From: Opitutales bacterium
GTDB taxonomy: Bacteria > Verrucomicrobiota > Verrucomicrobiia > Opitutales > PNEW01
Assembly (NCBI GenBank): GCA_965197745.1
Contig: CBDANS010000006.1
Span: 608,001-672,000 of the forward strand
Direction of reading: 5' to 3'
DNA: 64,000 bases
Of the stretch, positions 17,440-57,097 are shown in pieces; the stretch's first letter is position 1, and each line of letters begins with the position of its first letter. The notes under the pieces are model-generated. The model saw only the letters and a list, made by a program, of their open reading frames with translations, made no database searches and was not told the DNA's origin. The position numbers were made by a program, and so were the translations under genes.

Positions 17440-17826
17440 TGATTGGACCCCGTTTTTCGTACCAATTATTAAGTGAGAGAGTTCCCGGGTATTAATGGTT
17501 TTAGGATTGATGTATATGAGAGATCTTGGCGAAGTGAGGGCGTAGCCCGAACGCGGCCAAGATCTGAAAGGAATGTGACAAACTCTTGTGGGCTTTTAAA
17601 GCCTAAACGACTGTGGGGATGATCATGGTTATAGGTCTGGCGCCATTGTTCGATTACAACTTGTGCTTCAGCCACGCTGAGCAACACTTCACGGTTCAAA
17701 CACTCATCGCGTAAGCGGTTGTGAAACGACTCGATGAAACCGTTTTGCCAGGGACTGCCCGGATCGATATATATCGCCTTGATCTTTTTGTCGGACAACG
17801 ACTGCTGCACTTGATGAGCAATGAAT

Positions 17827-17858
17827 GGCTTCGCATGTCGTCGCTTCGCTCCTCGGAA
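17827..17858 (-). repeat. micro-insertion TTCCGAGGAGCGAAGCGACGACATGCGAAGCC in the SDNGS-E-F codon
   Basis: Absent from the homologous site at ~58195-58220; identical to 48610..48641 and 55418..55449. Confidence 0.95.
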
Positions 17859-17986
17859 CACTGCCGTTGTCACTACGGATATAGCTGGGAGCTCCCTCCT
17901 TTTCAATGGCCTCGCTAAGCACAGAGAGGACATCCGATGAGGGGAGTTCACGAGCGACCCGGATATCCAGACATTCACGCGTATAT

Positions 17987-18029
17987 GTCTTCGCTTCGCT
18001 TGAGTGTCGTCGCTTTCAGCTCCTCGGTA
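17987..18029 (-). repeat. micro-insertion TACCGAGGAGCTGAAAGCGACGACACTCAAGCGAAGCGAAGAC in the TLID-E-Y codon
   Basis: Empty allele ATCGATGAATATACG at ~55282-55296 and ~58074-58088. Confidence 0.95.
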
Positions 18030-18854
18030 CATCGATCAGAGTCATCATCTTTAATGGACCGCCATGGTCTGTGCGATCATGGACAAAGTCCCAGGACCAA
18101 AGGTGATTGCGACCGGTTGCTTTAGTAGGCGACCCCGTAGAGACCCCTTGACGGTGTCTACGCTTTTTAGGTGGCTTTACCTGCAACCCTTCTGAACGTC
18201 GTACCGCCTGAACAAACTTCCTGTTTGTTGTCCAGCCTTCCTTTACGAGCAAGGCACGGATGCGCCGGTAACCGTAGCAGGGATGTTCCCAGGACAGGGT
18301 TACAATCCGCTCGGCCAACCGCTGAGCTTTCTTACTGGCCTGCTTGGGCTGGTAGCTGAAAGTTGACCAACTGAGGCTGAGGTAGGAACAAGCCCTTCGC
18401 AACGAGCACAGCCCTCTCTCAGCCGCATCTTTTACTACTCGCTTCTTCTGCTTGGGGCTCACCACTTTTTTGACAGCGTTTCCTCCATTACCTGATTCTT
18501 AAGCATTTGATCAGCGAGCATCTTCTTCAACTCGGTGTTTTCTTTTTCCAGCTCTTTAAATCGCTTCGCATCGGCTAGTTCCAAATTGCCATACTTTTTA
18601 CCCCAGCGATAGAAGGTCTGTTCACTCACGTTGTTGCCTCGGCAGATTTCCTCTACCGTTTTTCCGGTATCGGCTTGCCGCAGTATTGCGATGATCTGTT
18701 CTGTTGTGTATCTTTTTCTTTTCATGAGGTTATCTGTTTATCCCGATAACCTCTCTCTGTTAATGATACCATTTTTGGGGGTCACTCCATCCTAGGCAAC
18801 GGCCCTAACTATTTTGATTCGGCCTTATTTAATGTCCATCCGACGTATGGAAAA

Positions 18855-19421: not shown

Positions 19422-20994
19422 GAATGGCGTTAAGATAAGGGATAGAATGAGTGCAATAGATGCTTGTACAGGGACCGTTGGAGAGCTACCCTAACGAGCA
19501 TGCAAAAACAAAACTTAACTCGTTATTTTCCAGGATTTAATCAGGTCCTGTTCGGTCGTGCTCCCCGAACAGCCCTTGCACAGATGGAGGGTAAGCTGGT
19601 AGAAATACGGCGGTCAAGTCTTTCCGAGCTATCGGATATCTTCGGGCAGTGGGTGCCGCAAAAGTATTTACACCGGAAGCCTCGAGGGGCTAACAGCCGG
19701 CGGAGATTGTTCAGCCAAAACGTGACCTTCTGGGCATTTTTGTTCCAAGTGCTCTCACCACGGACTGCCTGCCGGGAAGTGGTGCGCAAGCTCCAGAGCT
19801 ATTGCAGCATGAAGGGGCTGAAGTTGGCTAAAGGAACGGCCTCGGCCTACTGTCAGGCGAGGCAACGGCTGTTGGTGCAAGACCTGCACGGGATCCATGA
19901 AGCGATCAGTGAAGAGGTGGCCGGGAGAGTGACCGACGATCAACGGTGGAAAGGTCACGAGGTAAAAGTGGTCGACGGTACGGGTATCGCCACCGCCGAT
20001 ACGCCGTGCTTGCAGAGGTGTTACCCACAGCCTTCGCAGCAACGAAGCGGCTGCGGCTTTCCGGTGATGAAGCTGGTGGGCTGTTTTTCTTTAGCCAGTG
20101 GGGCGCTTTTACACTGGATGGAGTCCTCACTAAGGCATCATGACAGTGTGCTGTTGCGGGGCATGATCGGATTTTTTCAAAAGGGTGATGTGGTCCTTGC
20201 CGACCGGGGATTTTGCTCTTACCTCAATATTGCCCTGCTTAAAGGCCGCGGTGCTGAAGCGGTCATGCGTTTGCATCAGCAACGAAGAAGCGACTTTCGT
20301 CAGGGCAGGTCCTTGGGTAGGTATGACCGGCTGATCATGTGGAAGAAGCCGCAAAATGTCTTCGGCTTCAGTCGCGAGCAGTGGCGGCAAATCCCTGATG
20401 AGATCCCCGTACGGCTGGTGAAGATTTTCATTTTCATCAAAGGTTTCCGCGCCCATAGCGTAGACCTCGTGACTACCTTGAGCGATCCTCACCAATACTC
20501 CCACCACGATCTCGGAGAATTATACTATCGGCGCTGGGCAGTGGAGCTTTACTTTCGCCACATCAAAACCACCATGGGGATGGAGATCCTGCGCTCTCGC
20601 TCGGTCGCTCTCGTGCGCAAAGAGATTGCGATGTTTGCCATCGCCTACAATCTCTCATCCGCGCTCTTTTGCAGCAAGCTGCCAGTGCCTTCCACCGCGA
20701 CCTCTCCCGGCTAAGCTTCAAGGGGGCTGTTGACACCCTCCGCCAATATCAAAGTGCGCTCGCGGCCACCCGGTTTAATCCCAGAGCCCAACGATCTGTC
20801 ATTGACGAGATGATACACCTCATTGCCCTCGAATCGGTCCCCCTACGTCCCTTCCGATACGAACCAAGAGTCCTCAAACGTAGACCTATACCTTTCCAAC
20901 GATTGACTCATCCACGAGCCATGATGACCGTCTCTGCTTCACGAAAAAACAAAGGCTTTTATCATCCTAAACCACCCTTATCTTAACGCCATTC
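19422..20994 (+). mobile_element. IS4-family element, transposase with a 2-bp frameshift near 20652
   Basis: Perfect 20-bp IRs GAATGGCGTTAAGATAAGGG; 11-bp direct repeat AGGCCTGACCC at 19411..19421 and 20995..21005; VVDGT, LADRGF, YYRRWAVELYFRHIK (YREK). Confidence 0.95.
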
Positions 20995-21020
20995 AGGCCT
21001 GACCCTTTATGCTCTGTCCT

Positions 21021-31900: not shown

Positions 31901-34900
31901 TCACTCGATTGTTATCTCTTCCACCGTAACGGTTAATTCCTCACCATCGGCGTTTACAAATGTGGCGACGATGCTTTGCGTTGGTTGTGCCGTTAGGTCA
32001 GACTTAAAATTGTTCTGCGAAATCAGGGTATCGAATCCAGGTGCTGTCGATCCGCTCGGTGCGATCACGATCGAGGCACCGTTAGACTGAGAAAGATCAC
32101 CCCCCGTGATGCGCATCCCGGGATTACCCGCGGGTATGGTAAAGGACCCATCACTAAATAAAAGGTAGGGGACTGCATCGCCACTGGCATCGATGTCACC
32201 TACGGTTAACCGCACGGCTATCGGGATTCCACTGGCATCAAATCCAATCTTACCTGAACTGCCACTAAATACCGCGTTCGAGAGTTGTACGCCACCCAAG
32301 CCTGTAGAGTTGATCACCTCTACGAGCGTGACATCAGCTTCAGCATCATAGACCTGTCCCTCGGGGAACAATGCCTGGTTCACGGCATTGATCCTTCCCA
32401 CCGTGAAGATACTGAAGAAGGTACTCGCGTCGGCTTCTTCGATCAACACGCTCGGTTTGCCTGTAACATACATTACCTCCTGGTTGTAGCGAGGCGGCGG
32501 GGCGGGGGGCAGGTAGGTGTCCGGATCTAATGTAATCGTAAATGTACCGCTGCCCGAAAATTCTACCTGTACAATGTCCTCGTCTTCATCCATGAACGAG
32601 ACCCGTGTGATCTGCCCTGGCTTGGCCTGAAGTCGGATGGACTCCCCGGTTAACAAGACCTGGTCGAACACGTTCCCGTTAGGATGCTGGATGTCCTCAC
32701 CGGCAATATCTCCCGAGCCGTCAAGCACGAGGGGTAGAGGCGGAGCCGATACGGTAATCACCGCGGTATCACTATTGGTGCTCCCTCCAGCATTGGTTAC
32801 CTCTACCCAGAAGTTGGTGCTATGGGTAAGAGCACTGATGGTGAAAGTGTTGCTCGTAGCACCGGCGATGGGACTGGCGGTATTACCGCTGTTGCCGGTA
32901 TACCATTGGTAGGTGAGATCATCGCCAATTGCTGTCACTGATAGGACAACCGCGGTACCGGACTCTACTTCCTGGCTCGCAGGTTGGGATGTGATCGAGG
33001 GAGTACTGGGACCTTCCCCGTTAATAGAATCGGTAGTGAGACTGAAGACATAAGCTGAGCCGGAATCCTCACCGTTGTCATCGTCTAACCACGCTCCGAC
33101 TACCACGGTGTCACCGCTTATATCTACCGACCCAAAAGAGTTAAAACGCGCGCCATCGCTGGCTAATAGCTTAGTTACTTGGCCCCAGTTGTCAGCACCG
33201 CCTGTGTTGCGCTCAAAAATATAAGCTGAACCGGAATCAGTTCCGTTGTCATTGTCTCCGGTAGCTCCAACCACCACCGAGTCGCCGCTGATTTCGACCC
33301 ACCCCCCAAAAATGTCACCCTCTCCGCCATCGATGGCAAGCAGTTTGGCAACCTGACCCCAGTTGTCAGCACCGCCCGCGTTTCGTTCAAAAATGTAGGC
33401 AGAGCCGGAATCAGTTCCATTGTCATCGTCCAAATCTGCGCCCACGATCAAAGTATCTCCGCTGATCACAACATGATTGCCAAACACGTCTTCTATTGCG
33501 CTGTCATTTGCAGTTAGTTTTGTAATCTGTCCCCAATTGTTATCACCCCCTAAATCGCGTTCAAATACGTAAGCAGAGCCGGAATCGAGGCCGTTGTCAT
33601 CGTCATAGAGAGCACCTACTACTGCCGTGTTGCCGCTGATCGCTACTTCCCAGCCAAATAAGTCACCTTCTGCGCCATCGCTGGCCAATAGCTTAGCGAC
33701 TTGGCCCCAATTATCGATCCCCCCTGGTCGCGTTCAAAAATGTAAGCCGAGCCAGAATCACTGCCTTTGTCATCGTTACTGTCAGCCCCGACTACTAACG
33801 TATTCCCGCTGATCGCAGTGGATTTACCAAACAAGTCACCCGGCGCACCGTCACTGGCAGTTAATTTGGTTAATTCAAGGTCAACTATATTTTCTAATAT
33901 CTCGATCACCAGGTTGTAGGAAGTGCGAGTCGCTCCATTAAAACCTAAGATACGGAGGAAGTAGATCTCACTCGTCCCCACAACCAGAGATATGTGCTCG
34001 TTGTCAGTATCAGTCCCCGAAAAAGTTACCTCGTTTAAGTCCCCATCGTAAAGAAGTAGATCTAAGTCACCTTTTTCCTGGCTGAACAAGATGCTTACAT
34101 TTAGCCTACCCTTTGCGCTTGTTGTGAGGCGGTAGTAATCTTCCTCACCATGAACATGAATCGACAGATCATTCTCTGTATATTCATTAATTATCCCCAG
34201 TTCTGTCGCTGTTTCAAAGCTGTTATTGGGTTCGAATTGATCACCTGAACCTACTAAGTTTACACCAATATCTCCCAATATTGCCAAATCCAGATCTGAT
34301 ATTTTTTCACGTCTATCAGAGAAGGCAAATTGAGCCATTAAATCAGAAAGTAGAACTTCACCAGGACGAGGTGATGAATTCCCAACGTGAGAAATAGATC
34401 CAAAAGTTAAAGGAACCGGTCCACCGTAGACCATCATTGCCATAGGCCCCGTAAAAAAGAAATTTGTCCCATCAAAGTTTATTAACTCGTCATATGTCGT
34501 TATTATGTTGTGAGCAGGGAGTTCGCCAGTGGTTTCATTTATAAAAACTGCAATTCCAAATATATGCCCAAACTCATGCAAGATAGTCGAATAAGCATCA
34601 AATGAGCCAAACGGAATGCTATCCGTGCGTTCAGTAGGATTTGGATCAAACCATAATTCTCCATTGGTTAATGAATTTATACTAATTGTAATAAACCCGT
34701 CTGGTCTAGTTTCATTAAGGTCAATCCCAGTTCTTATTTCAAAGATCGAATTTGGTTCAACATTGATACGCGTGCCATCATTGCGAACAAAAGCGCTATT
34801 GGCAGCACCACCTGTTGCTAACAGGTCTGTCTCAAATTTATTGAATGCAACTTCAATTTCAATTGAGGGTTCCCCTTCAACCTCAAAATACTGAACCCAA

Positions 34901-44037: not shown

Positions 44038-46269
44038 ATGAAAAGAAAACCTATAAAAATAATTCCGATTCTGATTCTCTTGCTCTATTTCCCGGTGCGC
44101 CTGTCAGCCTTGCCTCAAGACCTCGATACTTTTTTCGATTTCGAAAATGTCATAGGTGAAGAGGGAGAGTTCATAATCGGGGAAGCGCCTTTTACGATCC
44201 GGGTTATTGGCTTCATATTGCAAGATGTAGAAAACCCCTCCCTCACACACTCAGGCACTCGGGCCCTGGTTCTCGACCAGAATGCCCCGGATCATAAAAT
44301 CTTATTTGAACGGGGCGTCAACTTGCTTCAGTTTTACGCCGTCGACACCTTGGGCGGTAGTAGAATCGAGCTCAGGGATCTTAATTTTATAGTATTGTCT
44401 GATCAAGGCGTCGTCAACGGTTTACCGACTACTCCCGGTCTACAAAGTTTCGTCTCTTTCAGTGGAGATATCCAGGATTTAACGGATCTTAATTTTACGA
44501 ATGGGATAAAGGAAATTAAGATCGTCAATCCGGGAGGACAAGTCGCCATCGATGACCTGGGATTTACTTATGTCGAGGGGCCGGCGAATAATACGGTGTT
44601 TGAAGAATTTAGTTATTATACAGAGCGTGCTATCTTTTTACCCCCTGATGGCAGTCGAACTAATTTTACCATAGGTTTTCCGCCTTACACCGCCACCTTT
44701 ACCGGTGGTGTTGTCCCTGGGACGCCCAATTTTGGGCCTTTTAATCACTCGATACCTGGTGGGGGTGCGCATTGGGGAATTATAGCTTCAGAGCTCTCAG
44801 GTCAACCAGTTAAAGAGGTTACCGGAGTGATCGAATTTGAAACCCCGGTTGCTCAAGTACAGTTCTATGCCGCCGTATTTTTCGAAAAAGATGGCTTTAT
44901 CGAAATCTTCGATCCTGAAGGTAACTTGCTCACCTCGACCGACGACGTCGGATTGAATATAAGTATTAACTTTAGTCTACCTTTTACTTATTTCGACTTC
45001 AATGCGGTGGAATTAGGCGCCCCGGGTGGGATTGGCAGTGTCCACTATACGAACCGGACGATCACCTCGACAACGGGAGATGTCGATGGTATCAGTTTGG
45101 ACGACATCGGGTATACCCCGGTCGGTGCTCCCGGAAGTGGTTCCGAGGGACCACCCCCTGTAACCGGTCCCTCTATCACTACCCAACCTGCGAGCCAGGA
45201 AGTGCAGTCTGGTACCGCAGTTGTATTGTCCGTCGCAGCCAGCGGTGACGATCTTACTTACCAGTGGTATACCGGCAACAGCGGTAACATTGCCAGTCCC
45301 GTCGTCGGGGCCACCACCAGTAGCTTAACTACCGGTGCTCTAACAACGAGCACAAACTTCTGGGTGTTGTTAACAAATGCCGGAGGGACCGCCAATAGTG
45401 ATACTGCAGTCATTACCGTTTCAGCCCCCTCTGTCCCTCTCGTCCTCGACGGTTCAGGTGATATAGCAGGAGAGAACATCCAGCATCCCAACGGTAACAT
45501 ATTTGATCAGATTCTGCTTACCGGAGAAAGCATCCGGCTTCAGGCAAGACCGAATCAGATCACACGGGTCTCCTTCATGGACGAAAATGAGGACATTGTG
45601 CAGGTAGAGTTCTCGGGCGCAGGGACCTTTACTGTAATCTTGGACCCGGCCACCTTCCTGCCTCCGGCTCCACCCCTACGCTACAACCAGGCCGTCGAGT
45701 ACGTGACCGGTAAGCCGAGCGTAGTCATCGATGGAGCTGACTCCAGTACCTTCTTCAGTATCTTTACGGTGGGATCGATCAACGCGGTGAACCAGGCGCT
45801 CTTCCCCGAGGGACAGGTTTATGACGCGCAAGCCGACGTCACCTTGGTGGAAGTGATCAACTCCACGGGGATGGGAGGGATACAGTTGTCGAATACTGTC
45901 TTCAGTGGAGACACCGGCAAAGTAGGCGTCGATGCACGCGGAGTACCGATAGCAGTACGCTTAACCGTAGGTGACATCGATGCCAGTGACGATGCAGTAC
46001 CACATTTGCTGTTTGGAGAAGGTTCCTTCACGGTGCCGGCCGGCAACCCCGGGTTGCGGATCACTGGAGGAGACCTGGCACAGACAAATGGAGCTTCGAT
46101 CGTAGTCGCGGAGAGCGGATCGACGACGCGAGAATTTGATACCTTGATTACGCAGAACAATTTTAAATCTGACAACACTCCTCAACCGACTCAAAATATC
46201 AATGCAACCTTCGTTAATGAAGAGGGTGATGAGATCACCATTGCTGTCGATGAGGTAACGATCGAGTGA
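44038..46269 (+). CDS. secreted protein: two related beta-rich domains, Ig and conserved C-terminal domain
   Basis: Signal peptide; repeated QFYA..IDDLGFT / LDDIGYT; C-terminal ~370 aa closely similar to 31901..33000. Confidence 0.88.
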   Translation: MKRKPIKIIPILILLLYFPVRLSALPQDLDTFFDFENVIGEEGEFIIGEAPFTIRVIGFILQDVENPSLTHSGTRALVLDQNAPDHKILFERGVNLLQFYAVDTLGGSRIELRDLNFIVLSDQGVVNGLPTTPGLQSFVSFSGDIQDLTDLNFTNGIKEIKIVNPGGQVAIDDLGFTYVEGPANNTVFEEFSYYTERAIFLPPDGSRTNFTIGFPPYTATFTGGVVPGTPNFGPFNHSIPGGGAHWGIIASELSGQPVKEVTGVIEFETPVAQVQFYAAVFFEKDGFIEIFDPEGNLLTSTDDVGLNISINFSLPFTYFDFNAVELGAPGGIGSVHYTNRTITSTTGDVDGISLDDIGYTPVGAPGSGSEGPPPVTGPSITTQPASQEVQSGTAVVLSVAASGDDLTYQWYTGNSGNIASPVVGATTSSLTTGALTTSTNFWVLLTNAGGTANSDTAVITVSAPSVPLVLDGSGDIAGENIQHPNGNIFDQILLTGESIRLQARPNQITRVSFMDENEDIVQVEFSGAGTFTVILDPATFLPPAPPLRYNQAVEYVTGKPSVVIDGADSSTFFSIFTVGSINAVNQALFPEGQVYDAQADVTLVEVINSTGMGGIQLSNTVFSGDTGKVGVDARGVPIAVRLTVGDIDASDDAVPHLLFGEGSFTVPAGNPGLRITGGDLAQTNGASIVVAESGSTTREFDTLITQNNFKSDNTPQPTQNINATFVNEEGDEITIAVDEVTIE

Positions 46270-46280
46270 GACGATTGTGG

Positions 46281-46343
46281 ATGTCGGTCTTCGCCCTCGG
46301 TACGGAATGCGGAATGAGGGATGTCGCGCTTAGCTCTCGGTAC
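46281..46343 (-). repeat. two TACCGAG-hairpin-CGAC units 40 bp apart within A(A/T)TCCG heptamer repeats
   Basis: GTACCGAGGGCGAAGACCGACAT (46281..46303) and GTACCGAGAGCTAAGCGCGACAT (46321..46343). Confidence 0.85.
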
Positions 46344-46402
46344 GGATTACGGATTGTGTCTAACGGTTATCGAATATAATTCTTATCTTCGTAATTATCC
46401 TC

Positions 46403-46559
46403 TTGTCATTGCGAGGAGCAATGCGACGAAGCTACCGAGCTCAGCGACATCTTCCACTCCAGGAGGATGTCGGTCACGTATTGACAGCCCCCTGGAATAG
46501 AAGATGTCGCGTTTCACGCTCGGTAGCCACAGTCAGCTACGCTTCCTTCGCGATGACAA
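46403..46559. repeat. GTCATTGCGAG..CGC(G/A)ATGAC palindromic element with micro-insertions in both arms
   Basis: Terminal TTGTCATTGCGAGG / CTTCGCGATGACAA; inserts at 46433..46448 and 46506..46525. Confidence 0.8.
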
Positions 46560-46663
46560 ATGGAATCAATCCGCAATTGAGACGGCCTGATTGACACCCA
46601 GAGCGCGGAAGTAATATTCTGATCTGTTCTGAATTGTGCATGTAGCACACTAAACGGGTGCGC

Positions 46664-47716
46664 TCAGGCATATTGCACGAGAATCTCGACATGATCCAGC
46701 CGCGGAGTCACGCAAATCGCCGGGTTGAGGCATTCCACGTCGATCTTCAATTCATTCTGGCCGAGCCTCAAGACATCGGGCGGCACGGGATAAGTCATGC
46801 GGGTAAAATTGTCCATGATAAACTGCGCCCGAGTGCTCCGCGCATCTCCCGGCAATAGCCTTCCGTTAACTGAGACCTCATACTCATCCGGCTGCGTGAA
46901 GTTGTGTACCTGCAAGTGCAAGGTGACTCTCGGCGACAGCGCCCGTTGCCGCGCCGCTTCCAGATCATCGGCAATCCCGAACGGGATGACGTGTGACCCA
47001 ACCGACAGCTCCACAGGGAGCACGATCGCGTCGATACCCCGGTAGATCCTGTGGTTCTGTCCCGATTCAGCGCCCTGGTTTGGCGCGCGCGGATGTGAAT
47101 CGAGATCGTAATCGCAGTTGAGAAAGGCAATTGCGCCCGGATCGTGGATCTCGCGCAGCACACGATAATAATCCGGGTGCAGATCGTCGTACCAGACCGT
47201 CCCTGTTCGCTCGGATTGCGGTGGCGTATCTTTTCCGTGTCCGTAGAGCAAGTGCCCGTAGTTGAACAGTTGCAGACCATGCGCTCCCCGGTGATACATT
47301 AACTTGGCCCAGGCGCGGGTCACTTCCGTCCTTCTCCAGTGGTTCGCGCAGGGGAAAATCCAGCAGTCATGCCCTTCGACCAGTTCCAACCACGGACCGA
47401 GGTCCATATCGAATAACATGTATCCGGCGCCAGGCGCAACGGCGTCGACCAACCCCTCATTTACCCACGTGCGCACGTCCATTCCTCGTTGCCAGCACGT
47501 GTCGATATCTGCCACGACACGCACATGCAGGTACATGGGCCGACCACGTTCGCTGCTCACGCGGTCCAGAATCTCGCGCGTCTGCCGTACCATGTCCGTG
47601 ATAAGCGCAGCGTTTTCCGCCTTGCCGAACTCTTTGAAGTAGCGAGGATCGCGGTCGAAATAAAGCGCGACGCCGTCGTTGTCCCATCGGGTGATGAACT
47701 CCTCGATGATGGCCAT
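46664..47716 (-). pseudogene. glycoside-hydrolase-like TIM-barrel protein, 5' part removed at the IS3 boundary
   Basis: DGVALYFDR, GMDVRTWVNEGLVD, GAHGLQLFNY; the ORF start lies inside the IS left IR. Confidence 0.65.
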
Positions 47717-49034
47717 TGGTCGTGACCACGAAAACTGGTACACTTGAAAAGTTAGTCTGGGTAACCTAGAAAGGACTCAGACAATGAAAGGCAAAAGATA
47801 CACAACTGAAGAGAAAATACGGATGCTGCGGCAGGCGGACAAAGGGAAAACGATCCTGGAAGCATGCCGCGAGAACAACATTAGCGAACAGACTTTCCAC
47901 CGCTGGAAGCGTGAGTTTGGGATGATTGATGTCGACCAGGCCAAGCGGATGAAGGAACTCTTTGAAGGAGAACGCGCGGTTAAAACGGATGCTGGCGGAC
48001 AAGATGCTGGGGATAGAGATCCTGCAGGAGACCCTCGAAAAAAAACTGTAAGCCCTGGGCACAAGCGGCAAGTGGCAGAGAGACTTGTGGCTCGGGGCCA
48101 GTGTTCGATGCGAGCGGGGTGCCGGTACTTTCGGCTGCACCGTTCCACCTATGCGTATAAGGCGAAGCATCCGGATGCCTGGTTAATGAAACTGAAGGCG
48201 GCAGTAAGGCGGTTATCACGGCAATATGCCAGGTGGGGCTATCCGAAGATCACGAAGCTGTTGAAAGACGAAGGCTGGGAGGTGGGTAAACGTCTCGTGC
48301 AAGGTCTACGACGCGAACTGGGCTTGGCGATCCCCCAACGCAAGCCAAGACGTCGGGGCAGGGGTGTTTCCACCGGGCTGCCGACCAAGGCCGAACATCC
48401 CGGCCATGTTTGGACCTGGGATTTTATCCACGATAAGACGGTCCGCGGTGGCAGTTTAAAAATGTTGACCGTGCTCGATGAGTACACCCGCGAGTGTCGA
48501 GTGATCCATGTTGATCGCCATATCAATGCGGAAACGGTGCGCGGTATCATGCAAAAACTGCTTGCCCGTCATGGGCCGCCACAATATATTCGCAGTGACA
48601 ACGGTTCCGTTCCGAGGAGCGAAGCGACGACATGCGAAGCCATTCATTGAAAAGGAATTGAGAGCCTGGCTAACTGCGATGAAAATCAAAACCCTCTATA
48701 TCGAACCAGGAAGCCCTTGGCAGAACGGATACATCGAATCGTTGCATGCCCGTTTTCGCGAGGAGTGTTTAAACCGTGAACAGCTATGGACTTTGACCGA
48801 AGCCCGCGTGGTGATCGAGGACTGGCGCTGGCTTTACAATAATGTCCGACCCCACCGCAGCCTCGGCAATATCACCCCACGGTGCTTCGCTGAAGACATT
48901 AATACCGAAGGCTTGGGCTCCATTCGGGCTACGCCCTCATTGCGCCCAAGCCTTGACTTCCTCTACCAACTTAACTTCAACATTAACCTCTCCAGACTAA
49001 CTCTCTCGGTGGACCAGTTTACGTAACCCGATCA
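47717..49034 (+). mobile_element. IS3-family element, subfamily B (extra T in orfA; micro-insertion in orfB)
   Basis: IRs TGGTCGTGACCACGAAACTGGTACAC / GTGGACCAGTTTACGTAACCCGATCA; WTWDF, SDNGS, PGSPWQNGYIES. Confidence 0.92.
48610..48641 (+). repeat. 32-nt micro-insertion identical to 17827..17858
   Basis: AAC GGT TCC G[insert]A TTC ATT. Confidence 0.95.
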
Positions 49035-49086
49035 GTACTAATATAGGTTGGGACTGATTTTAAAATAAAGTTAATCAATACTGAAA

Positions 49087-49887
49087 ATGATTATCAAAAG
49101 AAAGAATTTCGTATTCGCATCAATAACTTGGACGATCTCCGGTTTATGTCTTTTTACTAATGTTTTTTGTAATCAATTATCAGGAAGCTATGATAAGAAC
49201 TTTGAACCCTTTTTTAATTCTAAAATTAGTGAAATATCAGATTTGAATAAAAAGGAGGAATTAGAGAATCTTTTCAGTCAAATTGTATCATTACGTGACA
49301 TGCTTCGTGGCCGCGGCATAAATGATCGTGGCACTAGCATAAATAATGAATATGAAGATTTAACAGTTAGGCTTTCAGAAAAATTGAAGCAAGCAGTTAG
49401 GCAAACGGATATCCGAGCTGCATCGACATTTCTTTTTGACACAGTCGAAGATAATTACAACCGCCAGGCAGGACTATCTGCACTTCGTGAATATCAAGAA
49501 TTTAAAATCACTGATATTGAGTTACTCAGTAAGTTATATGTATCTTTAGACTACGAGGACAAAAATCACCACTCGGATAGACGATGGGTTGTACCTTCTA
49601 TTGCAAGAGCCCAACTATCACGTTGGATAGAATACGTGCTTGGTTTAGGAAATGTAGACTCTGCTCCAGCAAAAGAGAAGTATTCTAATCCAAGAAAGTG
49701 GTTAATAAGTAACTTGGAATTAGCGAAACAGTTAGATCAGAATAAAGATTTTTTACCTCTTATTGAGAGTAGCCTAGAGGCTGTACAAATAAACTATGGT
49801 ATTATCAATTCTGTTAAAATAAAAAAAGATAATGTTGATCGGACCCCGTTTACTGTACCAGAGCCCGTGTTAGATCCATCAGGATAG
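49087..49887 (+). CDS. AT-rich secreted hypothetical protein, 3' end cut by an IS end at 49836
   Basis: Signal-like N-terminus; last ~17 codons read through IS terminal sequence. Confidence 0.6.
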   Translation: MIIKRKNFVFASITWTISGLCLFTNVFCNQLSGSYDKNFEPFFNSKISEISDLNKKEELENLFSQIVSLRDMLRGRGINDRGTSINNEYEDLTVRLSEKLKQAVRQTDIRAASTFLFDTVEDNYNRQAGLSALREYQEFKITDIELLSKLYVSLDYEDKNHHSDRRWVVPSIARAQLSRWIEYVLGLGNVDSAPAKEKYSNPRKWLISNLELAKQLDQNKDFLPLIESSLEAVQINYGIINSVKIKKDNVDRTPFTVPEPVLDPSG

Positions 49888-50870
49888 TAAGAGTTTTGAT
49901 TTGCTTAGATATGGCTCTCTGGACGTATTCGGCCGGAGGCCGATAGCCCAGAGAACTGTGGAGTCTTTGAGTATTACAATCAAGGCGTCCGGCTTCAGAT
50001 TTTCTATCACATTGGAGTGACCCTAAAAATCGCATCATTTTCAGAGAGAAGTTATGGGGATAGACAGTAAGCTCAATGAAAAGAAAAAGAGAGCCAACAA
50101 ACAGATTATAGCAATACTGGGGCGAGCAGATACAGGAAAGACGGTAGAGGAAGTCTGCTGTGGCAAACAAGGTTAGAGAAAAGATCTTACACTGATTGAA
50201 TCGGGAGTTGATGATGATCGATGGGGACCAGGCCAAGCGGATGATGGATTGGGAAGGGAAAACACACTTGAAGCGAATCCTAACGGATACGATGCCTGGT
50301 GCGGAGATTGTACAAGAGGCGCTGGGCACAAGCAAGAAGCGGTTGAAAAGTTTGTGTCTCGGGATCGCTGTTCGATGCGTGGGGGGGTCAATATTTTCGT
50401 TTTTACCGCTCTGCCTATTCCTATAAGGGGAAGTATCCTTATGCTTGGTTAACAAAGCTGAAAGCAGCGGTGAGATGTTTGTCACGACAATACACTGGAG
50501 ATAAGGCTACATCAAGATCACGAAGCTGTTGCAGGAGGAGGGGGGCGTTAAGGAACCGATGGTGCATGGGCTGCGCTGTCAACTGGGCTTGGCGATTGCG
50601 CTCCATAGACCGAAACATTGATGCAGGGGCACTTCCACTGGCTTGCCAACTGCGACCGAGCATCCCAGCCATCGTCCTTAGTTGGGACTTTATCCACGAC
50701 AAAACGATTCGCGGGGAGCGATCCAAAATAGCTGGCTATCCATAATGAATATACGCGTGAGGTTCTGCTTATCCACGTCGAGCGTCTCATTACCACCATG
50801 AGCGTGCGATCATGCAAAAGCAGATCGACACAGTCACGGGGCTCCATGCTATTATAGCAGCGACAACTCA
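49836..50870. mobile_element. degenerate IS3 fragments (subfamily C right end on minus; A/B mosaic on plus from 50013)
   Basis: Similarity to 57145..57300, 54523..54700 and 47900..48600. Confidence 0.8.
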
Positions 50871-51237
50871 ACGAGCGATAGCGAGAATAACAAACAGATC
50901 TATTGAAGTATTGTACTTGTTGCAACTTGATCTGACAGACACTGCTTGATCAAATCACAACTCGGTCAGGCAAAAACATTTATAGTTTTCTTCTCAACTT
51001 CTAATCAAATAATAAGTTATCGTCGTGGAGTGCCCCAAAAAAATCCACTCGAAAATTCTTGGCCGATTCCTGGCTGAAGATCAGCATAAAAGTATGATTC
51101 CTGCCCATTCCTGCCAAACATTTTGAGGCAAGGTCAGGAAATTAGAGGAAAATATAAATTATTATTGGGTCGTTATTTAAGTGTAACTAATTTTTAATAA
51201 GTATCTTATAAGGCATTATTGAGTCCCGTTCATAGTC

Positions 51238-51537
51238 GGTTTCATCGAGTCGTTTCACACCGTTTACGCGATGAGTGTTTGAACCGTGAAGTGTTGCTCA
51301 GCGTAGCTGAAGCCCAAGTTGTAATCGAACAATGGCGTCATAATTACAATAATGAACATCCCCACACTCGTTTAGGCTTTAAAAGCCCACTAGAGTTTGT
51401 CAGATTCCTTTCCGATCTTGGCCTCGTCGGGCTAGGCCCTCACTTCGCCAAGATCTCTCATATACATCAATCCTAAAACCATTAACACCCCGATACTCTC
51501 TCACTTAAAAATTGGTACGAATAACGGGGTCCGACCA
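51238..51537 (+). mobile_element. IS3 subfamily A right-end fragment
   Basis: RLRDECLNREVLL (empty RDEC site) through the IR ..ACGGGGTCCGACCA. Confidence 0.88.
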
Positions 51538-52449
51538 CTTACCCTCCACAATCATCAAGTCCTCAATGGCGGAGAGAATAACATCCAATTCTCGATGATC
51601 GATTGTATCTAATGGCGATTGAAAATAATTTCGGATCGTCGCACTTCGAATAACGCCGCGACGTCTGAGTACTTCCTTGTAAAGCTGCAACGGGTAGAGA
51701 GATTGCATATTCAGGAGAGGAAGCAAGCGATCGAATAAACGCCGTGCTTTTGCAGCATCACCGCGCTCATAAGTATTCCATATCGCTGCATGCACATCCG
51801 GAATATCGCAAGCCGGCATCGTCCCGCACACTCCCCTGGCCATCTCGTTCATCATGTGCCGGCCGGCCAATCCACCGAATATCCCGTGCAGCTTTTCTTT
51901 ACGCTGAACAAGCTCGAAAAGTTTCGAAACCACATGCGTGCAGAAAAGAGATTCCTCCTTGATATAATGAATATGTTCAATCTCATCGATGAGACGCGCC
52001 ATAAATTCCGGACTCATCGGTGAGCCGACGAAGATGGAGTTTTGAACAATAACGGGAACTTCGGTTGCTGCACCAATGGCTTCAAAATAGCGATATATCC
52101 CCTCACTGTGCAGAGGCTTGATTGGTGGTGACATTGCCATGATCCCATCGGCGCCCAATCCGTTCATCGCCTTCGTCAACTCTGCGGCTGCGTGCGCAGA
52201 CACTCCGCTAGCGACGAGGACTACGGGGATTCGTCCATTCGCCTGTTCACAAACAATGCGGCTGACAAGTAGTCGCTCTTCATCCGAGAGTGCGAAAAAT
52301 TCACTGACATTCGCAGGAACTACCAACCCATGCGCACCCACATCAATGCTAAAATTAACAACCGAGCGAAGAGACTCTTCATCAATACTGCCATCTTCAT
52401 AAAAAGGTGCGACAAGAATAACGTATACACCGCGAAATTTATTTCCCAT
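51505..52449 (-). CDS. dihydrodipicolinate synthase (DapA/NanA) family lyase; C-terminus runs into the IS end
   Basis: GVY..LVAPFYEDGSID, SEFFALSDEER, YIKEES Schiff-base Lys. Confidence 0.88.
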   Translation of the reverse strand: MGNKFRGVYVILVAPFYEDGSIDEESLRSVVNFSIDVGAHGLVVPANVSEFFALSDEERLLVSRIVCEQANGRIPVVLVASGVSAHAAAELTKAMNGLGADGIMAMSPPIKPLHSEGIYRYFEAIGAATEVPVIVQNSIFVGSPMSPEFMARLIDEIEHIHYIKEESLFCTHVVSKLFELVQRKEKLHGIFGGLAGRHMMNEMARGVCGTMPACDIPDVHAAIWNTYERGDAAKARRLFDRLLPLLNMQSLYPLQLYKEVLRRRGVIRSATIRNYFQSPLDTIDHRELDVILSAIEDLMIVEGKWSDPVIRTNF

Positions 52450-52493
52450 ATTATGGACGAGTCAAAAGATCAAAACGTCAAAAAGAATTAACC

Positions 52494-53534
52494 ATGTACA
52501 CTTTAGAAGAAGATCTCCAAGAGATAATTGAACAAAGCCGCGTTGAGCTTGGGTCTTCTGGGATTATAGCTCGTGTGGAGACTGATGACTTTTTCTGGTG
52601 TGGGACATCCGGAATATTAACTTCCACCGACATTGATAGAGGATTCTACATTTGCAGTCTTAGTAAAACATTCACCGCAATTCTGGTAATGAAGCTTCTT
52701 GAAAATGGTAAACTAAAATTAGATGACCGAATTTCAATTTATCTCAATAAGATTAGCCCGTTTCAGAATATTACTATTAGGCAATTGCTAAATCACTCAC
52801 ATCGTATTCCAGATTATACAAGCTTTGATAACTACGAAGATGAAGTAAATAAATCTCCACATAATCCATGGTCGCGGGAATACATCTCTTCAAGAGCGAA
52901 AAAGATCGGCCTTCTGGAATCTTCGGACGGGAACTGGTCGTACTCAAATACTGGATACATGTATTTATATCAAATAATTGAAATTGTCACTGGGCAAAGT
53001 TATGTCGATGCTATTGACGAACTGGTTATCAAGCCACTCGGGTTTCAATACACGTATGTTGCTACTAAGATCGATAAAGGCAAAATTCTGATTCCAGCCT
53101 ATGACCAATATTTCTCTAAATATGAAGGAGACATACGTTGTCAATATCACCCTGACTGGTGTGCTACGGGTGTACTTGTATCAAATGTTAAGGAAGTATG
53201 TTAACTTTACAGAAAACTGTTAGAGGGTTCCATCCTATCAGAAGAGTCAATGCAAGAAGTATTAGAAGGAGTCGAAACACCTTACTGGGTTGGAGGACGA
53301 GAAGCGTTATACAATGGCAAGTTGAGTTATGGCCTTGGCATAAGAATCTGTAGAAAATTCCCTCTTGGTCCCTTTTTTGGTCATGGAGGAGATTGCCCAG
53401 GCTATTCGATTTGGGCTGGATATATAGATATTTCTGGCGGTAAAAATATAACGAGCTGTGTAGTCTGTAATAGCAGCCTTAAATTTCCACCAGCCGAAGT
53501 TTGGATGAAACTGATCAATCGTGTAGTGGAGTAA
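52494..53534 (+). pseudogene. serine hydrolase (beta-lactamase/D-peptidase family) with an in-frame TAA at 53202
   Basis: SLSK (SxxK), LLNH, YSN, HGG all in the same frame. Confidence 0.85.
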
Positions 53535-53643
53535 TAGAGGGAGTGTAAATAGAAATCATATTTTCTTTAACTCTCTCTCAATTATTGAAGCAATACTTTC
53601 AGGTGTTGCTGTAATAGCGACCACCAGTGCATTTTGGGGCTCC

Positions 53644-54159
53644 TCAAGAGTATTGTTTGTTGAGCTCCCAGCCGCCTTTTGTCTTTAGCGTAACCCTGAT
53701 ATTTCCATGTATATCCGTTCGAAAGACTTTGTCTCCCTGTTTCGATCCAGCGCTGCCGGTTTCGTAGAACTCCAAGGCCTTCTCTTCCGGATGACCAAAC
53801 GAGTTGTCTCCGACAGACACGATCGTAACGTCAGGACTGATCTTACGCAGATGATCTAGATAGTAATGTTTCTTGTCTCTTGGATCGTCGAAAAAGGTCA
53901 ACGATCCGTGATGGCTGGCGAGTAGCAGTGACGAACTGAGCGATTCTACATCGTAACTCCTCACTATACTGTACCTCCACGCAACTGCACTTGAATCGCC
54001 GGTGAGCATCATGCTTCCAAGAACTGCACCGTTCGCAGGTCGCCGTTGTTCTACTTTTATAACGATGCTTTGGGCATTCGCATCTGTATCCAAGGCATCA
54101 TTCTTGGAGTTCATTATTCTGAGTCGCGTGTTGCCGAAATCCCAGCGTTTCATTGCCTC
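53644..54159 (-). pseudogene. ComEC/Rec2-like metallo-beta-lactamase-fold protein, 5'-truncated by IS
   Basis: SIVIK, MLTGD, ASHHGS, SVGDNSFGHP, RTDIHGNI. Confidence 0.8.
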
Positions 54160-54522
54160 TGGAGTGACCCCAAAAAATCGTATCACTTACCGTGAGAGGT
54201 TATCGGGATAAACAGATAACCTCAATGAAAAGAAAAAGATACAGAACAGATCATAGCAATACTGCGGCAAGCCGATACAGGCAAGACGGGACAGGAAGTC
54301 TGCCGTGGTAACAACCTAAGCGAACCGCCCTTCTATCGGTGTGGTAAAAAGTCAATCAATTAGGGGTTACCTATAAGTGTGCTTACAGGATGGGTAAACA
54401 AATACGGAAGCTACTTAATGATAATATTGATCCTCTCAATAGTGTAGTTGAACTTGATGAAACCTATTAAGGGGCTAAAGAAAGCAACAAACATTAGCAT
54501 AAAAGGACCCGGTATACACAAG
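54160..54522 (+). mobile_element. IS3 subfamily A left-end fragment followed by an IS1595 transposase remnant
   Basis: TGGAGTGACCCCAAAAAATCGTATCA plus the orfA start; then YKCAYRMGKQIRK..VVELDETY with stops. Confidence 0.8.
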
Positions 54523-55417
54523 TGGTGTGACTCCTAAAAATCGTATCATTTACCGAGAGAGGTTATGGGGATAAACAGATAACCTCAATGAAAAGAAAAC
54601 GATATACAACAGAACAGATCATAGCAATACTCCGGCAGACCGATACGGGCAAGACGGGACAGGAAGTCTGCCGCGGCAACAACCTAAGTGAACAGACCTT
54701 CTATCGCTGGGGCAAAAAGTATGGCAACTTGGAGCTGGCCGATGCTCTAGCGATTTAAAGAACTGGAAAAAGAGAATACCGAGTTGAAGAAGCTGCTCGC
54801 TGATCAAATGCTCAAGAATCAGGTGATGGAGGAAACGCTGTCAAAAAAGTGGTGAGCCCCAAGCAGAAGAAGCTAGCAGTAAAAGGTGCAGTTGAGAAAG
54901 GGCTGTGCTCGTTTTAGAGGGCTTTTGCCTATCTCAGTCTCAGAGTTTTGGTCAACGTTCAGCTACAGGTCTAAGCAGGCCAGCAGGAAAGCTCAGCGGT
55001 TGGCCGAGCGGATTGTAACCCTGTCCTGGGAACATCCCCGCTACGGTTACCGGCGCATCCGTGCCTTGCTGGTGAAGGAAGGTTGGGCGGCGAGCAGGAA
55101 ATTTGTACAGGCAGTGCGACGTTCTTCGGGCTTACAGGTAAAGCCACCGAAAAAGCGTAGACACCGTCAAGGAGTCTCTACAGGGTCGCCTACTAAAGCA
55201 ACCGGTCGCAATCACGTTTGGTCCTGGGACTTTGTCCATGATCGCACAGACAATGGCGGTCCATTAAAGATGATGACTCTGATCGATGAATATACGCGTG
55301 AATGTCTGGATATCCGGGTAGCTCGTCAACTCCCCTCATCGGATGTCCTCTCTGTGCTTAGCGAGGCCATTGAAAAGGAGGGAGCTCCCAGCTATATCCG
55401 CAGTGATAATGGCAGTG

Positions 55418-55449
55418 TTCCGAGGAGCGAAGCGACGACATGCGAAGCC
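55418..55449 (+). repeat. 32-nt micro-insertion identical to 17827..17858
   Basis: AAT GGC AGT G[insert]A TTT ATC. Confidence 0.95.
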
Positions 55450-55571
55450 ATTTATCGCTCATCAAGTACAGCGGTGGTTGCGTGAAAAAAACATCAAGGC
55501 GATATATATCGATCCGGGCAGTCCCTGGCAAAACGGTTTCATCGAGTCGTTTCACAACCGCTTACGCGATG

Positions 55572-55607
55572 TACCGAGGAACGTAGTGACGACATAGCGA
55601 AGCGCTC
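55572..55607 (+). repeat. micro-insertion TACCGAGGAACGTAGTGACGACATAGCGAAGCGCTC in the RLRD-E-C codon
   Basis: Empty allele CGCGATGAGTGTTTG at ~17697-17711 (minus) and ~51267-51281. Confidence 0.95.
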
Positions 55608-55999
55608 ATGTTTGAACCGTGAAGTGTTGCTCAGCGTGGCTGAAGCGCAAGTGCTAATAGAACAATGGCGTCAGACCTATAACAATGAACATCCCCACAG
55701 TCGATTAGGCTTTCAAAGCCCACAAGAGTTTGTCAGATTCCTTTCAGATCTTGGCCGCGTTCGGGCTACGCCCTCACTGCTCCATGATCTCTCATATACA
55801 TCAATCCTAAAACCATTAACACCCGGTAGTTCTCTCACTTAATAATTGGTACGAATAACGGGGTCCGATCACTCTCACTATTCACTTCTAATTATCGTCC
55901 TTTTCCTGAACTTTCTTCACCGACATCAGCCACAGATGGTTGTTGACAAGATTTGGGGATCGGTAACGAACGCCATCCAGGAAATGATTCGGGCGTCGG

Positions 56000-57097
56000 C
56001 TACAGATCCAATCCGATACCAAATATGAACTGGAAATCGTTTTCCTCCGGTTCCTTACCGGTGGCGTCGGGAATAGGATTCGCTGTCCAGTCCCATACAA
56101 AGGAAACATTAAGGTTGAGCCTGTTTGTAATCTCGAACTCGATGCTTGTTATGGAATGTGAAATAACTCCCCCGGAAGCTTCGTCGGCATAGCGTAACTC
56201 ATAGATTCCGTTCAGATCCAGCCATTCTGTGATCTCCGTTACGAAATGGGATCCGACTGAGAACGAGAGCGCCTCATCGCTTGCCTGTTCTCCGACCTGC
56301 ACGGTGGAGAACCGTGTCAATTGATAACTGATTTCTGTCGTGGTATCCCATTCCGTTTTTGAGTTTCTCTTAATGTTGTAGCCGACCCCTGCGCCAAGAG
56401 AATAGCGGTTATCTATGTTTTGAAAGGGATTCGCGAAAGACTCAATGGCGAAGGGGCGAACGAAAAATTTCTTTGTAAAAGAAATATCGAAATATGAATT
56501 AGTGCGATGACTATTGGCCGTTTCTATTCCCTCGGTTTTACTGAAAGTTCCGATGTAATCGAAGTAGAAGCGGTTATTCGCGGTTCGATGCTGGATCGTC
56601 ACCAAGGTATTCCAGTCGGCTTGTTCGGTGTTTCCGCTCCCAATGTTCGCGCCGACGGTGGCTTTTGCGGACCACAAGTCCAGTTTCTTGGGGCTCCCAG
56701 CAGCGATTGAAAAAACGTCTGAGCGATTTATTACTAGGTCTTTCTCCGACTCCGTAACCACGAGTTCATCTCCTTTCATAAAGAGTTTGCCAGTTGCAGT
56801 TTGTCGATCTCCATAACGGACCATTTGCGATCGTGCCGAGTGCATCTGCGCTACATCGTCCCAATCGATGTCGAGGAGGCCGAGTTTGTCGCTGTCAAAC
56901 TCGACGGTGTAATCATACATCTCTTTAATTTCACCCTTTAGCCACTCTCCCGAGGTCAACTGGATCCAGTCGAACTCATCGGGTGGTGGTGGTAGTGGAC
57001 TCCATGCGGCGTAGTTCCCCATTGGAACGCCGAGAGAAAGGAGAGAAATGGAACTGACGAGTCGAATAAGGTACATTTTCTGTCCGAGACTTCTCAT
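56000..57097 (-). CDS. DUF481/YdiY-like outer-membrane beta-barrel protein
   Basis: DWIQLTSGEWLKG, SGNTE, alternating beta-strands, C-terminal FGIGLDL. Confidence 0.8.
   Translation of the reverse strand: MRSLGQKMYLIRLVSSISLLSLGVPMGNYAAWSPLPPPPDEFDWIQLTSGEWLKGEIKEMYDYTVEFDSDKLGLLDIDWDDVAQMHSARSQMVRYGDRQTATGKLFMKGDELVVTESEKDLVINRSDVFSIAAGSPKKLDLWSAKATVGANIGSGNTEQADWNTLVTIQHRTANNRFYFDYIGTFSKTEGIETANSHRTNSYFDISFTKKFFVRPFAIESFANPFQNIDNRYSLGAGVGYNIKRNSKTEWDTTTEISYQLTRFSTVQVGEQASDEALSFSVGSHFVTEITEWLDLNGIYELRYADEASGGVISHSITSIEFEITNRLNLNVSFVWDWTANPIPDATGKEPEENDFQFIFGIGLDL

Follow-up and report, generated by a model that had tools for sequence, protein, structure and literature searches.

An intergenic palindrome in the genome of an Opitutales bacterium carries in each of its two arms a short segment built around a hairpin, and such segments are very probably small non-autonomous insertion modules, a reading of the sequences that rests on comparing paralogues, strains and contigs. 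The palindrome lies in the window, by which is meant the whole 64,000-nt stretch of DNA that was analysed, at positions 608001-672000 of contig C6 of genome G000 (a 4.45-Mb assembly in 7 contigs). The window palindrome is, on balance, probably an ordinary copy of a REP/BIME-like intergenic palindrome, each arm of which has been hit independently by the micro-insertion module. The modules belong, apparently, to an undescribed family and would be among the smallest insertion-prone pieces of DNA known. None of the titles listed for the motifs GTCATTGCGAG and CGACATCTTCCA concerns bacterial repeats, and the papers found on palindromic or mobile repeats of Opitutales, judged by titles and the opening parts of abstracts, describe no such repeat.

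The limits of the module are seen by setting filled arms beside empty ones. Empty arms read ..G(A/C)(A/G)GC AATCCAGG, for example GAAGC-AA-TCCAGG; filled arms read ..GC TACCGAG-hairpin-CGACATCTTCCA-N-TCCAGG, that is, GC-[TACCGAG, hairpin, CGACATC, YNYCA]-N-TCCAGG. The module accordingly has the plan 5'-TACC-GA-[variable hairpin]-GA-CAT-[4 nt or second mini-hairpin]-CA-3' and encodes nothing; simple forms measure 24-35 nt and composite, two-hairpin forms 33-44 nt. In the window palindrome the letters quoted in the first-pass annotation are present as given: TACCGAGCTCAGCGACATC stands after GAAGC in the left arm, at 46433-46451, and TACCGAGCGTGAAACGCGACATC after GTGGC in the right arm, read on the minus strand at 46525-46503. 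The minimal unit that it had proposed, TACCGAG-hairpin-CGAC, is too short, in that the unit continues through CGACATC and a 5-nt tail ending in CA. The pattern TACCGAG-N(3-14)-GACATC occurs four times in the window, always within 46280-46525, against 0.02 occurrences expected, and none of 100 shuffles reaches four. Genome G000 contains 92 TACCGAG..GACATC units and 116 exact GTCATTGCGAG heads; a single exact head is present in the window, where the head of the right arm has diverged. The coordinates of the palindrome, of the units in the window, and of the related inserts in insertion sequences (IS) are collected in Table 1.

Table 1. Palindrome, micro-elements and composite IS inserts in the window, with the four polymorphic sites of the IS3-family element
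Feature	Position	Strand	Remarks
Host element, imperfect palindrome, 153 nt	46405..46557	.	left arm begins GTCATTGCGAG; right arm (minus strand) begins GTCATCGCGAAGG
Central hairpin of palindrome	46464..46490	.	family-typical centre, not an inserted unit
Left-arm micro-element TACCGAGCTCAGCGACATCTTCCA	46433..46456	+	24 nt; 7-nt hairpin GC-TCA-GC; odd junction base 46457 (C)
Right-arm micro-element TACCGAGCGTGAAACGCGACATCTTCTA	46498..46525	-	28 nt; 11-nt hairpin GCGT-GAA-ACGC; odd junction base 46497
Micro-element in short AATCCGN/ATTCCGC heptamer array downstream of gene ending 46269	46315..46342	-	11-nt hairpin, tail CCTCA
Micro-element after ORF 44038-46269	46275..46302	-	11-nt hairpin, atypical tail CACAA
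Composite member, 44 nt, two hairpins	17986..18029	-	site 1, OrfB of IS copy 17440-18789; replaces AA; in-frame TGA
Composite member, 33 nt, TTCCGAG start	17826..17858	-	site 2, IS copy 17440-18789; replaces AG; net 31 nt, frame shifted
Composite member, 33 nt	48610..48642	+	site 2 of another IS3-family copy; AG-bearing contigs in X8 and X17
Composite member, 33 nt	55418..55450	+	site 2, IS copy ~54523-55878
Composite member, 37 nt	55572..55608	+	site 4, IS copy ~54523-55878; replaces AG; net 35 nt; in-frame TAG (own reading)
IS site 1, empty form GATG-AA-TATAC			insert of 44 nt replaces AA; net +42
IS site 2, empty form AGTG-AG-TTCA			insert of 33 nt replaces AG; net +31
IS site 3, empty form CTGGC-AA-AACGG			insert of 44 nt replaces AA; net +42
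IS site 4, empty form GATG-AG-TGTTTG			insert of 37 nt replaces AG; net +35

The palindrome is situated between convergent open reading frames at 44038-46269 (+) and 46664-47743 (-), and the hairpin core at 46280-46302 starts 10 nt past the stop codon of the former. With both arms empty, palindromes of this kind are 101-105 nt long, against 153 nt for the doubly filled copy in the window. Folding it as single-stranded DNA, a check proposed with the first-pass annotation, gave one long hairpin (-46 kcal/mol, z -9.0), and so did folding as RNA (-87.2 kcal/mol, z -10.7); in the whole-palindrome fold the left-arm and right-arm units pair with each other. The stretch at 46467-46485, initially taken for a partial third unit, is part of the ordinary central hairpin, which has some 8-12 letters in common with the 3' half of the unit and is found also in palindromes with both arms empty. 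The arms themselves follow the plan ..TTGC-GA-hairpin-GA-AGCAA.., so that a GA-hairpin-GA core is common to arm and module, and both draw on a common pool of hairpins, for example those of the type TCCCGC..GCGGGA.

Several features of the surroundings may be recorded here. The open reading frame at 44038-46269 has an Ig-like domain, Ig_7, as its sole Pfam match, and the 359-aa frame at 46664-47743 is without a Pfam family. The C-terminal ~1.1 kb of the former (window 45168-46270 (+), and again at 31901-33002 (-)) belongs to a gene-end family, for which the genome has some hundred or more paralogous matches at about 70-80% identity, many of which are followed by a GTCATTGCGAG palindrome. The segment 45900-46700 of the window recurs in reverse orientation at C7:1685122-1685922 of G000 as an 801-bp segmental duplication with 99.5% identity, spanning the gene end, both upstream units and the entire palindrome; a further paralogue of the palindrome, 78% similar, lies at C6:717363-717580. 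The stretch from about 46629 to 47720 has two copies in the related genome G002, at 96-97% identity and in unrelated surroundings, and is therefore probably an unclassified insertion sequence adjoining the palindrome. An orthologous empty site was sought in genomes G001 and G002 and none was obtained, as the right flank of the palindrome is a mobile element that is present elsewhere in G002.

Under looser matching, 158 arms are recognisable in G000, of which 93 are empty and 65 filled. The first-pass annotation had regarded the extra segments as insertions and had named, as the contrary case, that every genomic copy might contain them; these counts agree with insertion. The view that the segments are integral and ancestral, and that the "empty" forms are deletions, is close to refuted: filled arms are common, and the doubly filled palindrome has been copied as such between the window and C7, but the number of empty arms, the presence of one and the same unit in unrelated sequence contexts, and the coding state of empty IS sites (below) all speak against it. 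The commonest unit, with hairpin GCGCAGC and 13 copies, stands behind 13 distinct arm sequences out of 13. Two paralogous loci, L003 and L004, differ by a 27-nt gap and a change of AAT to ATT in an intergenic stretch that is otherwise almost identical; a second near-identical pair (C6:595857 and C6:596296) differs essentially by the unit; and for 20 of the 92 units a paralogous site of empty-like form exists. At the arm junction the additional base is T in 34 cases, C in 5 and A in 5. The proposal that each insert replaces one A of AAT is wrong: the arm junction has one base too many, and the IS sites lose two bases, AA or AG.

The presence of a unit in each arm of the window palindrome had been described as a symmetrical invasion. 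Among 48 inverted arm pairs, 18 are empty on both sides, 25 are filled in a single arm and 5 in both, against 19.4, 22.2 and 6.4 expected under independence, and the two units in the window belong to different hairpin classes (7-nt and 11-nt). Since double filling is no commoner than chance and the hairpins differ, the symmetry is attributed to chance and not to a process; three of the five doubly filled pairs, moreover, look like one lineage. Copying of one arm onto the other with the palindrome as template was considered, and is ruled out by the differing hairpins and the independent filling. The hairpin classes are distributed unevenly between targets: the 7-nt class is found 23 times in arms and twice elsewhere, and the 11-nt class 9 times in arms and 33 times elsewhere.

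The flanks and ends of the module are fixed, and the hairpin is variable, with compensatory changes. Two or more terminal Watson-Crick pairs are present in 76 of 105 TACCGA..GACATC stretches, compared to about 10 in shuffles, and four or more in 34, compared to 0.4. Hairpins of 7, 11 and 18 nt dominate. Pairing is seen in 97 of 120 cells of the 11-nt class, against 78.7 in column shuffles (none of 1000 shuffles reaches the observed value), and three of the four pairs show double changes, such as G-C to C-G or A-T. Most loops are triloops, G-N-A or A-A-A, with a closing C-G pair, and GA..GA flanks the stem on both sides; a G-N-A triloop on a C-G pair is typical of very stable mini-hairpins of single-stranded DNA. 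An 8-nt class has GTAA or ATAA tetraloops. Stem mismatches, in our own tally of the pair tables, comprise seven G.T and seven A.C, and with the two equally frequent neither strand looks like RNA. A search of Rfam 15 returned no RNA family (best match mir-878, 25.8 bits against a cut-off of 80), and a search for terminators and promoters found nothing beyond chance.

The same module is found in coding sequence. An alignment of 34 full-length copies of an IS3-family element, with one window copy at 17440-18789 and a second at ~54523-55878, revealed four sites in OrfB that are polymorphic for an insert (Table 1). All four inserts start with T(A/T)CCGAG and end with CA, and those at sites 1, 2 and 4 are composite, consisting of a first hairpin, GACAT (GACAC at site 1), a second mini-hairpin and CA. 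In our own reading of the frame, empty sites 1, 2 and 4 preserve a transposase Glu codon, GAA or GAG, whereas the filled forms introduce an in-frame TGA at site 1 and a frameshift at sites 2 and 4, which is hard to reconcile with the segments being ancestral. OrfB of the window copy at 17440-18789 is split across three frames. All 34 copies carry at least two micro-inserts that break OrfB, and none is free of inserts. About nine of these IS3-family copies, though located at different sites and with a broken OrfB, share at least 99.5% identity; this implies either mobilisation in trans or the existence of intact copies beyond this assembly. Another IS, of ~1.58 kb (window 19422-21003), has 11 further copies at about 99.2-99.7% identity, which indicates a heavy load of recently active IS in this genome.

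It had been suggested that the IS inserts derive from, or share machinery with, the palindrome family, and that the host's own sequence at 46411-46429 nearly matches their core. That likeness is confirmed, with 16 of 19 positions identical in our count, and the arm and IS inserts are indeed of one family, with the T(A/T)CCGAG start, the GACAT core and the CA end. Descent of the IS inserts from the palindrome family does not follow: the common plan of arm and module, taken with the 16 identical positions, points to an architecture in common rather than to descent.

Metagenomic data bear on the filled and empty states directly. Logan contigs of four public runs (contigs, not raw reads) were compared with window 46001-56000. 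A joint that skips the 33 nt at 48610-48642 (ends TT..CA), with AG between, is present in DNA run X8 and RNA run X17; one that skips the 33 nt at 55418-55450, again with AG between, is present in RNA run X17; and joints that skip the 37 nt at 55572-55608 (ends TA..CA), likewise with AG, are present in DNA runs X3 and X8. These AG-bearing joints confirm the replacement of two bases and show that the empty forms exist as DNA. They lend no support to RNA splicing or ribosomal bypass of the IS inserts, as the 33-nt skip seen in X17 occurs also in DNA run X8 and the 37-nt skip occurs in DNA runs only. A contig of X3 (record 17) covers 46001-46690 with five differing letters and no gaps, so that a palindrome with both arms filled exists in a further data set. 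A contig of X8 connects 46313 with 46602, and in X3 two contigs connect 46432 with 46526; these joints may represent empty forms, other centres or paralogues. An RNA-library contig spans 46506-46702, for which carry-over of DNA is possible. Short tandem arrays near the palindrome, at 46314 and 46566, also vary between samples: DNA run X8 lacks 7 nt, and 13 nt (CAATCCGCAATCG) are added in DNA run X8 and RNA run X19.

Beyond the arms, the module is found in tandem heptamer arrays (AATCCGC, AATCGNC and AACCCTG types), in a GCCAC..AAAGGCAC repeat and in IS3 elements. One of the latter contexts is a 1.34-kb IS3-type element (C6:552736-554071, locus L001, and six paralogues), in which a simple unit of the 8-nt hairpin class sits in seven copies directly beside an A8 frameshift (slippery) run; empty copies of this element have AG or CG in place of the unit. 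Outside the arms and this A8-run context, 43 units have distinct flanks. Their preceding base is G in 26 and C in 12 (38 of 43), their following base is A or T in 40, the C of the tail is present in 38 and the final A in 40. Entry is in one orientation relative to the target, after G or C and before A/T-rich sequence. There is no target duplication, and in arms and IS sites one or two target bases are displaced. The preferred targets are repeated, dispensable DNA: arms, heptamer arrays and, within IS3 transposase genes, a small number of fixed positions.

How the module enters these targets may be considered under three heads. An enzyme-driven DNA route, relying on a putative trans-acting enzyme, is tentatively ranked as the most likely. 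Such an enzyme would be encoded elsewhere in these genomes, would recognise the hairpin with its tandem G.A base together with the conserved single-stranded flanks, and would cut and join the module as DNA. A link to RAYT was examined as a candidate and is ruled out: the one Y1 (IS200/RAYT-type) transposase match in G000 (Y1_Tnp, 46 bits) has no unit within its locus, and this Y1 family is found also in relatives that lack the module. No long or autonomous version was found in G000, where there are only three candidate pairs of units, one consisting of separate units around an ordinary gene and two being without the ..CA tail; nor does a transposase lie between paired units. The orientation of units shows no bias with respect to GC skew (15/7 against 13/10, p = 0.54), which argues against a single-strand mechanism on the lagging strand, where a bias might be visible. 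The non-uniform junction, with two bases replaced at IS sites and an extra base in arms, also counts against the enzyme-driven reading.

That non-uniformity is more readily accommodated by a process without a dedicated enzyme, in which templated repair, copy-choice or gene conversion would draw on an ectopic donor through a few bases of homology; this is ranked second, and we consider it rather unlikely. Insertion and the adjacent base change (AAT to ATT, AG to CA) occur as one event, and a base change next to an insertion is a signature of templated mutagenesis. The one-base difference of the junction between contexts, the way in which hairpin classes track target types, and the multi-copy nature of most targets, in which conversion is easy, are in the same direction. 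Against it, the module begins without exception at precisely the T of TACCGAG and ends almost always in CA (38 and 40 of 43), and these ends remain constant in targets as devoid of common homology as IS coding sites, heptamers and arms. It would have to account, too, for 19 flank letters kept across several families of the order, and for at least 43 distinct non-arm flanks, each of which needs an original entry.

Third, the hairpin and flanks of a transcribed copy might serve for its recognition, after which it would be reverse-transcribed and placed into a nick. This RNA route is ranked last of the three and appears improbable. Units do lie in transcribed 3' regions, with the RNA-library contig noted above and its possible DNA carry-over as a case in point; the stems are kept by compensatory change, and the tetraloops of the 8-nt class would suit an RNA. 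Triloops dominate, however, the mismatches reveal no RNA-type wobble on either strand, and there is none of the poly-A or 3' heterogeneity typical of retro-copies. Entry of the module as DNA, by the hand of an enzyme acting in trans, thus retains first place.

The unit with the ..CA tail was detected in 29 of 201 Opitutales genomes, a reversed-pattern control giving zero in all but one genome, with 79 copies in G000, 113 in G001, 125 in G002, and 38, 113 and 61 in the other richest genomes. The nested form is present in 3 of 41 relatives. Outside the order, a search of 124 genomes of the class and phylum produced one single-copy match. Among the matches listed, it is MAGs of Opitutales and Puniceicoccaceae that make up the named records with several copies, and most of the others are single, mostly coding, stem-less matches; in the other named genomes the unit is again found in arms and short tandem arrays. 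A search for carriage by phage yielded two matches in viral contigs, both without a stem.

On the best reading of these comparisons, the nearest known kind would be the SDR family of Nostocaceae; the module seems to resemble SDRs and REP/BIME mosaics while being a member of neither. The SDRs that Elhai et al. are said to have described in 2008 (SDR4-6) are reportedly dispersed modules of 21-27 nt with fixed flanks and a variable hairpin, which reportedly nest in other repeats, MITEs and heptamer arrays. We know of no enzyme assigned to them. The Opitutales module is likewise gene-less, of tens of bases, with fixed TACCGAG and CGACATC..CA around a covarying hairpin, and it too is nested in other repeats, with precise entry and no target duplication. 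It differs in its occurrence in Verrucomicrobiota, in displacing one or two target bases, in having composite two-hairpin forms of up to 44 nt, above the reported SDR size, and in repeatedly hitting IS3 transposase genes. Its sequence is presumably unrelated to that of SDRs. SDR5 is reported to insert precisely between nucleotides 3 and 4 of HIP1, and SDRs are reported to be absent outside Nostocaceae; given the Opitutales host, the module is not filed as an SDR.

Mobile GC clusters of yeast mitochondria and the "byp" elements invade genes and other repeats as hairpin inserts some tens of bases in size, byps being skipped by the ribosome. The module resembles them in size, in its hairpin and in entering genes and other repeats, but it gives no sign of removal or bypass, and its empty forms exist as DNA. 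Rickettsia palindromic elements (RPEs) exceed the module in length, and functional genes that contain them are read through them in frame; the module, in contrast, adds a net 42, 31, 42 and 35 nt at the four IS sites, two of which are out of frame, with an in-frame stop at site 1, so that the IS genes are broken. RPEs are described as small palindromic repeats within protein-coding genes (PMC3733652). Unlike MITEs, the module has ends, TACCGAG and ..CA, that are not inverted repeats, produces no duplication and has no long parent. It is distinguished from palindrome elements derived from IS200/IS605 by the 4 nt upstream of it, which vary and are biased only at position -1 (G 26, C 12 of 43), and by its single hairpin in the simple form, where those elements enter 3' of an invariant tetra- or pentanucleotide and have hairpins at both ends.

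REP, BIME and REPIN sequences are characterised as short stem-loops, conserved in a tag and with alternative, compensating stems, which form mosaics and inverted dimers (Bertels & Rainey 2011, PMC3116915; Di Nocera et al. 2013, PMC3733652), and REP-type repeats are there noted inside small palindromes and even open reading frames (PMC3733652). The host palindrome behaves like a heterodimeric BIME. The defining feature of REPs is a GTAG or CGTC tetranucleotide directly abutting the stem (PMC3733652), and Opitutus terrae is reported to have GTAG repeats in abundance, with many located within genes. Neither tetranucleotide abuts the stem of the module, the flanks of which are ..CCGA and GACATC; for GTAG to arise on its opposite strand the target has to contribute a C, and the tetranucleotide is then 4 nt away from the stem. 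Nor is a RAYT gene flanked by units of the module, as in a REPtron. In contrast to REPINs, the modules act as singletons, the arms being filled independently and with partner hairpins of different classes, and there is no inverted doublet; their entry is also defined, with displacement of bases of the target. The kind of element is one known from cyanobacteria, and the Opitutales family of micro-insertions is, apparently, unpublished.

The family bears on how gene-less DNA of tens of bases spreads, which has been a question since the cyanobacterial SDRs, and it offers for that purpose many natural filled and empty pairs, sharp ends and a base-displacing junction. Its patchy spread over about 200 sequenced relatives makes a co-occurrence search for the enzyme feasible. 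It is possible, though at this stage speculative, that the module is the substrate of a DNA-joining enzyme of an undescribed kind, restricted in the genomes searched to Opitutales, which would paste pieces as small as 24 nt and remove two target bases. If so, this would be a transposition chemistry without target duplication or terminal inverted repeats, and the module would be the smallest mobile DNA with defined ends known. Whatever its route, the module reshapes the genome, breaking IS3 transposase genes at fixed spots and lengthening the hairpins behind genes; it affects annotation through spurious open reading frames and frameshifted transposases, and possibly the activity of the IS as well. 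In its preference for IS3 transposase genes, a module moved by such an enzyme would act on other mobile elements as a parasite or as a brake.
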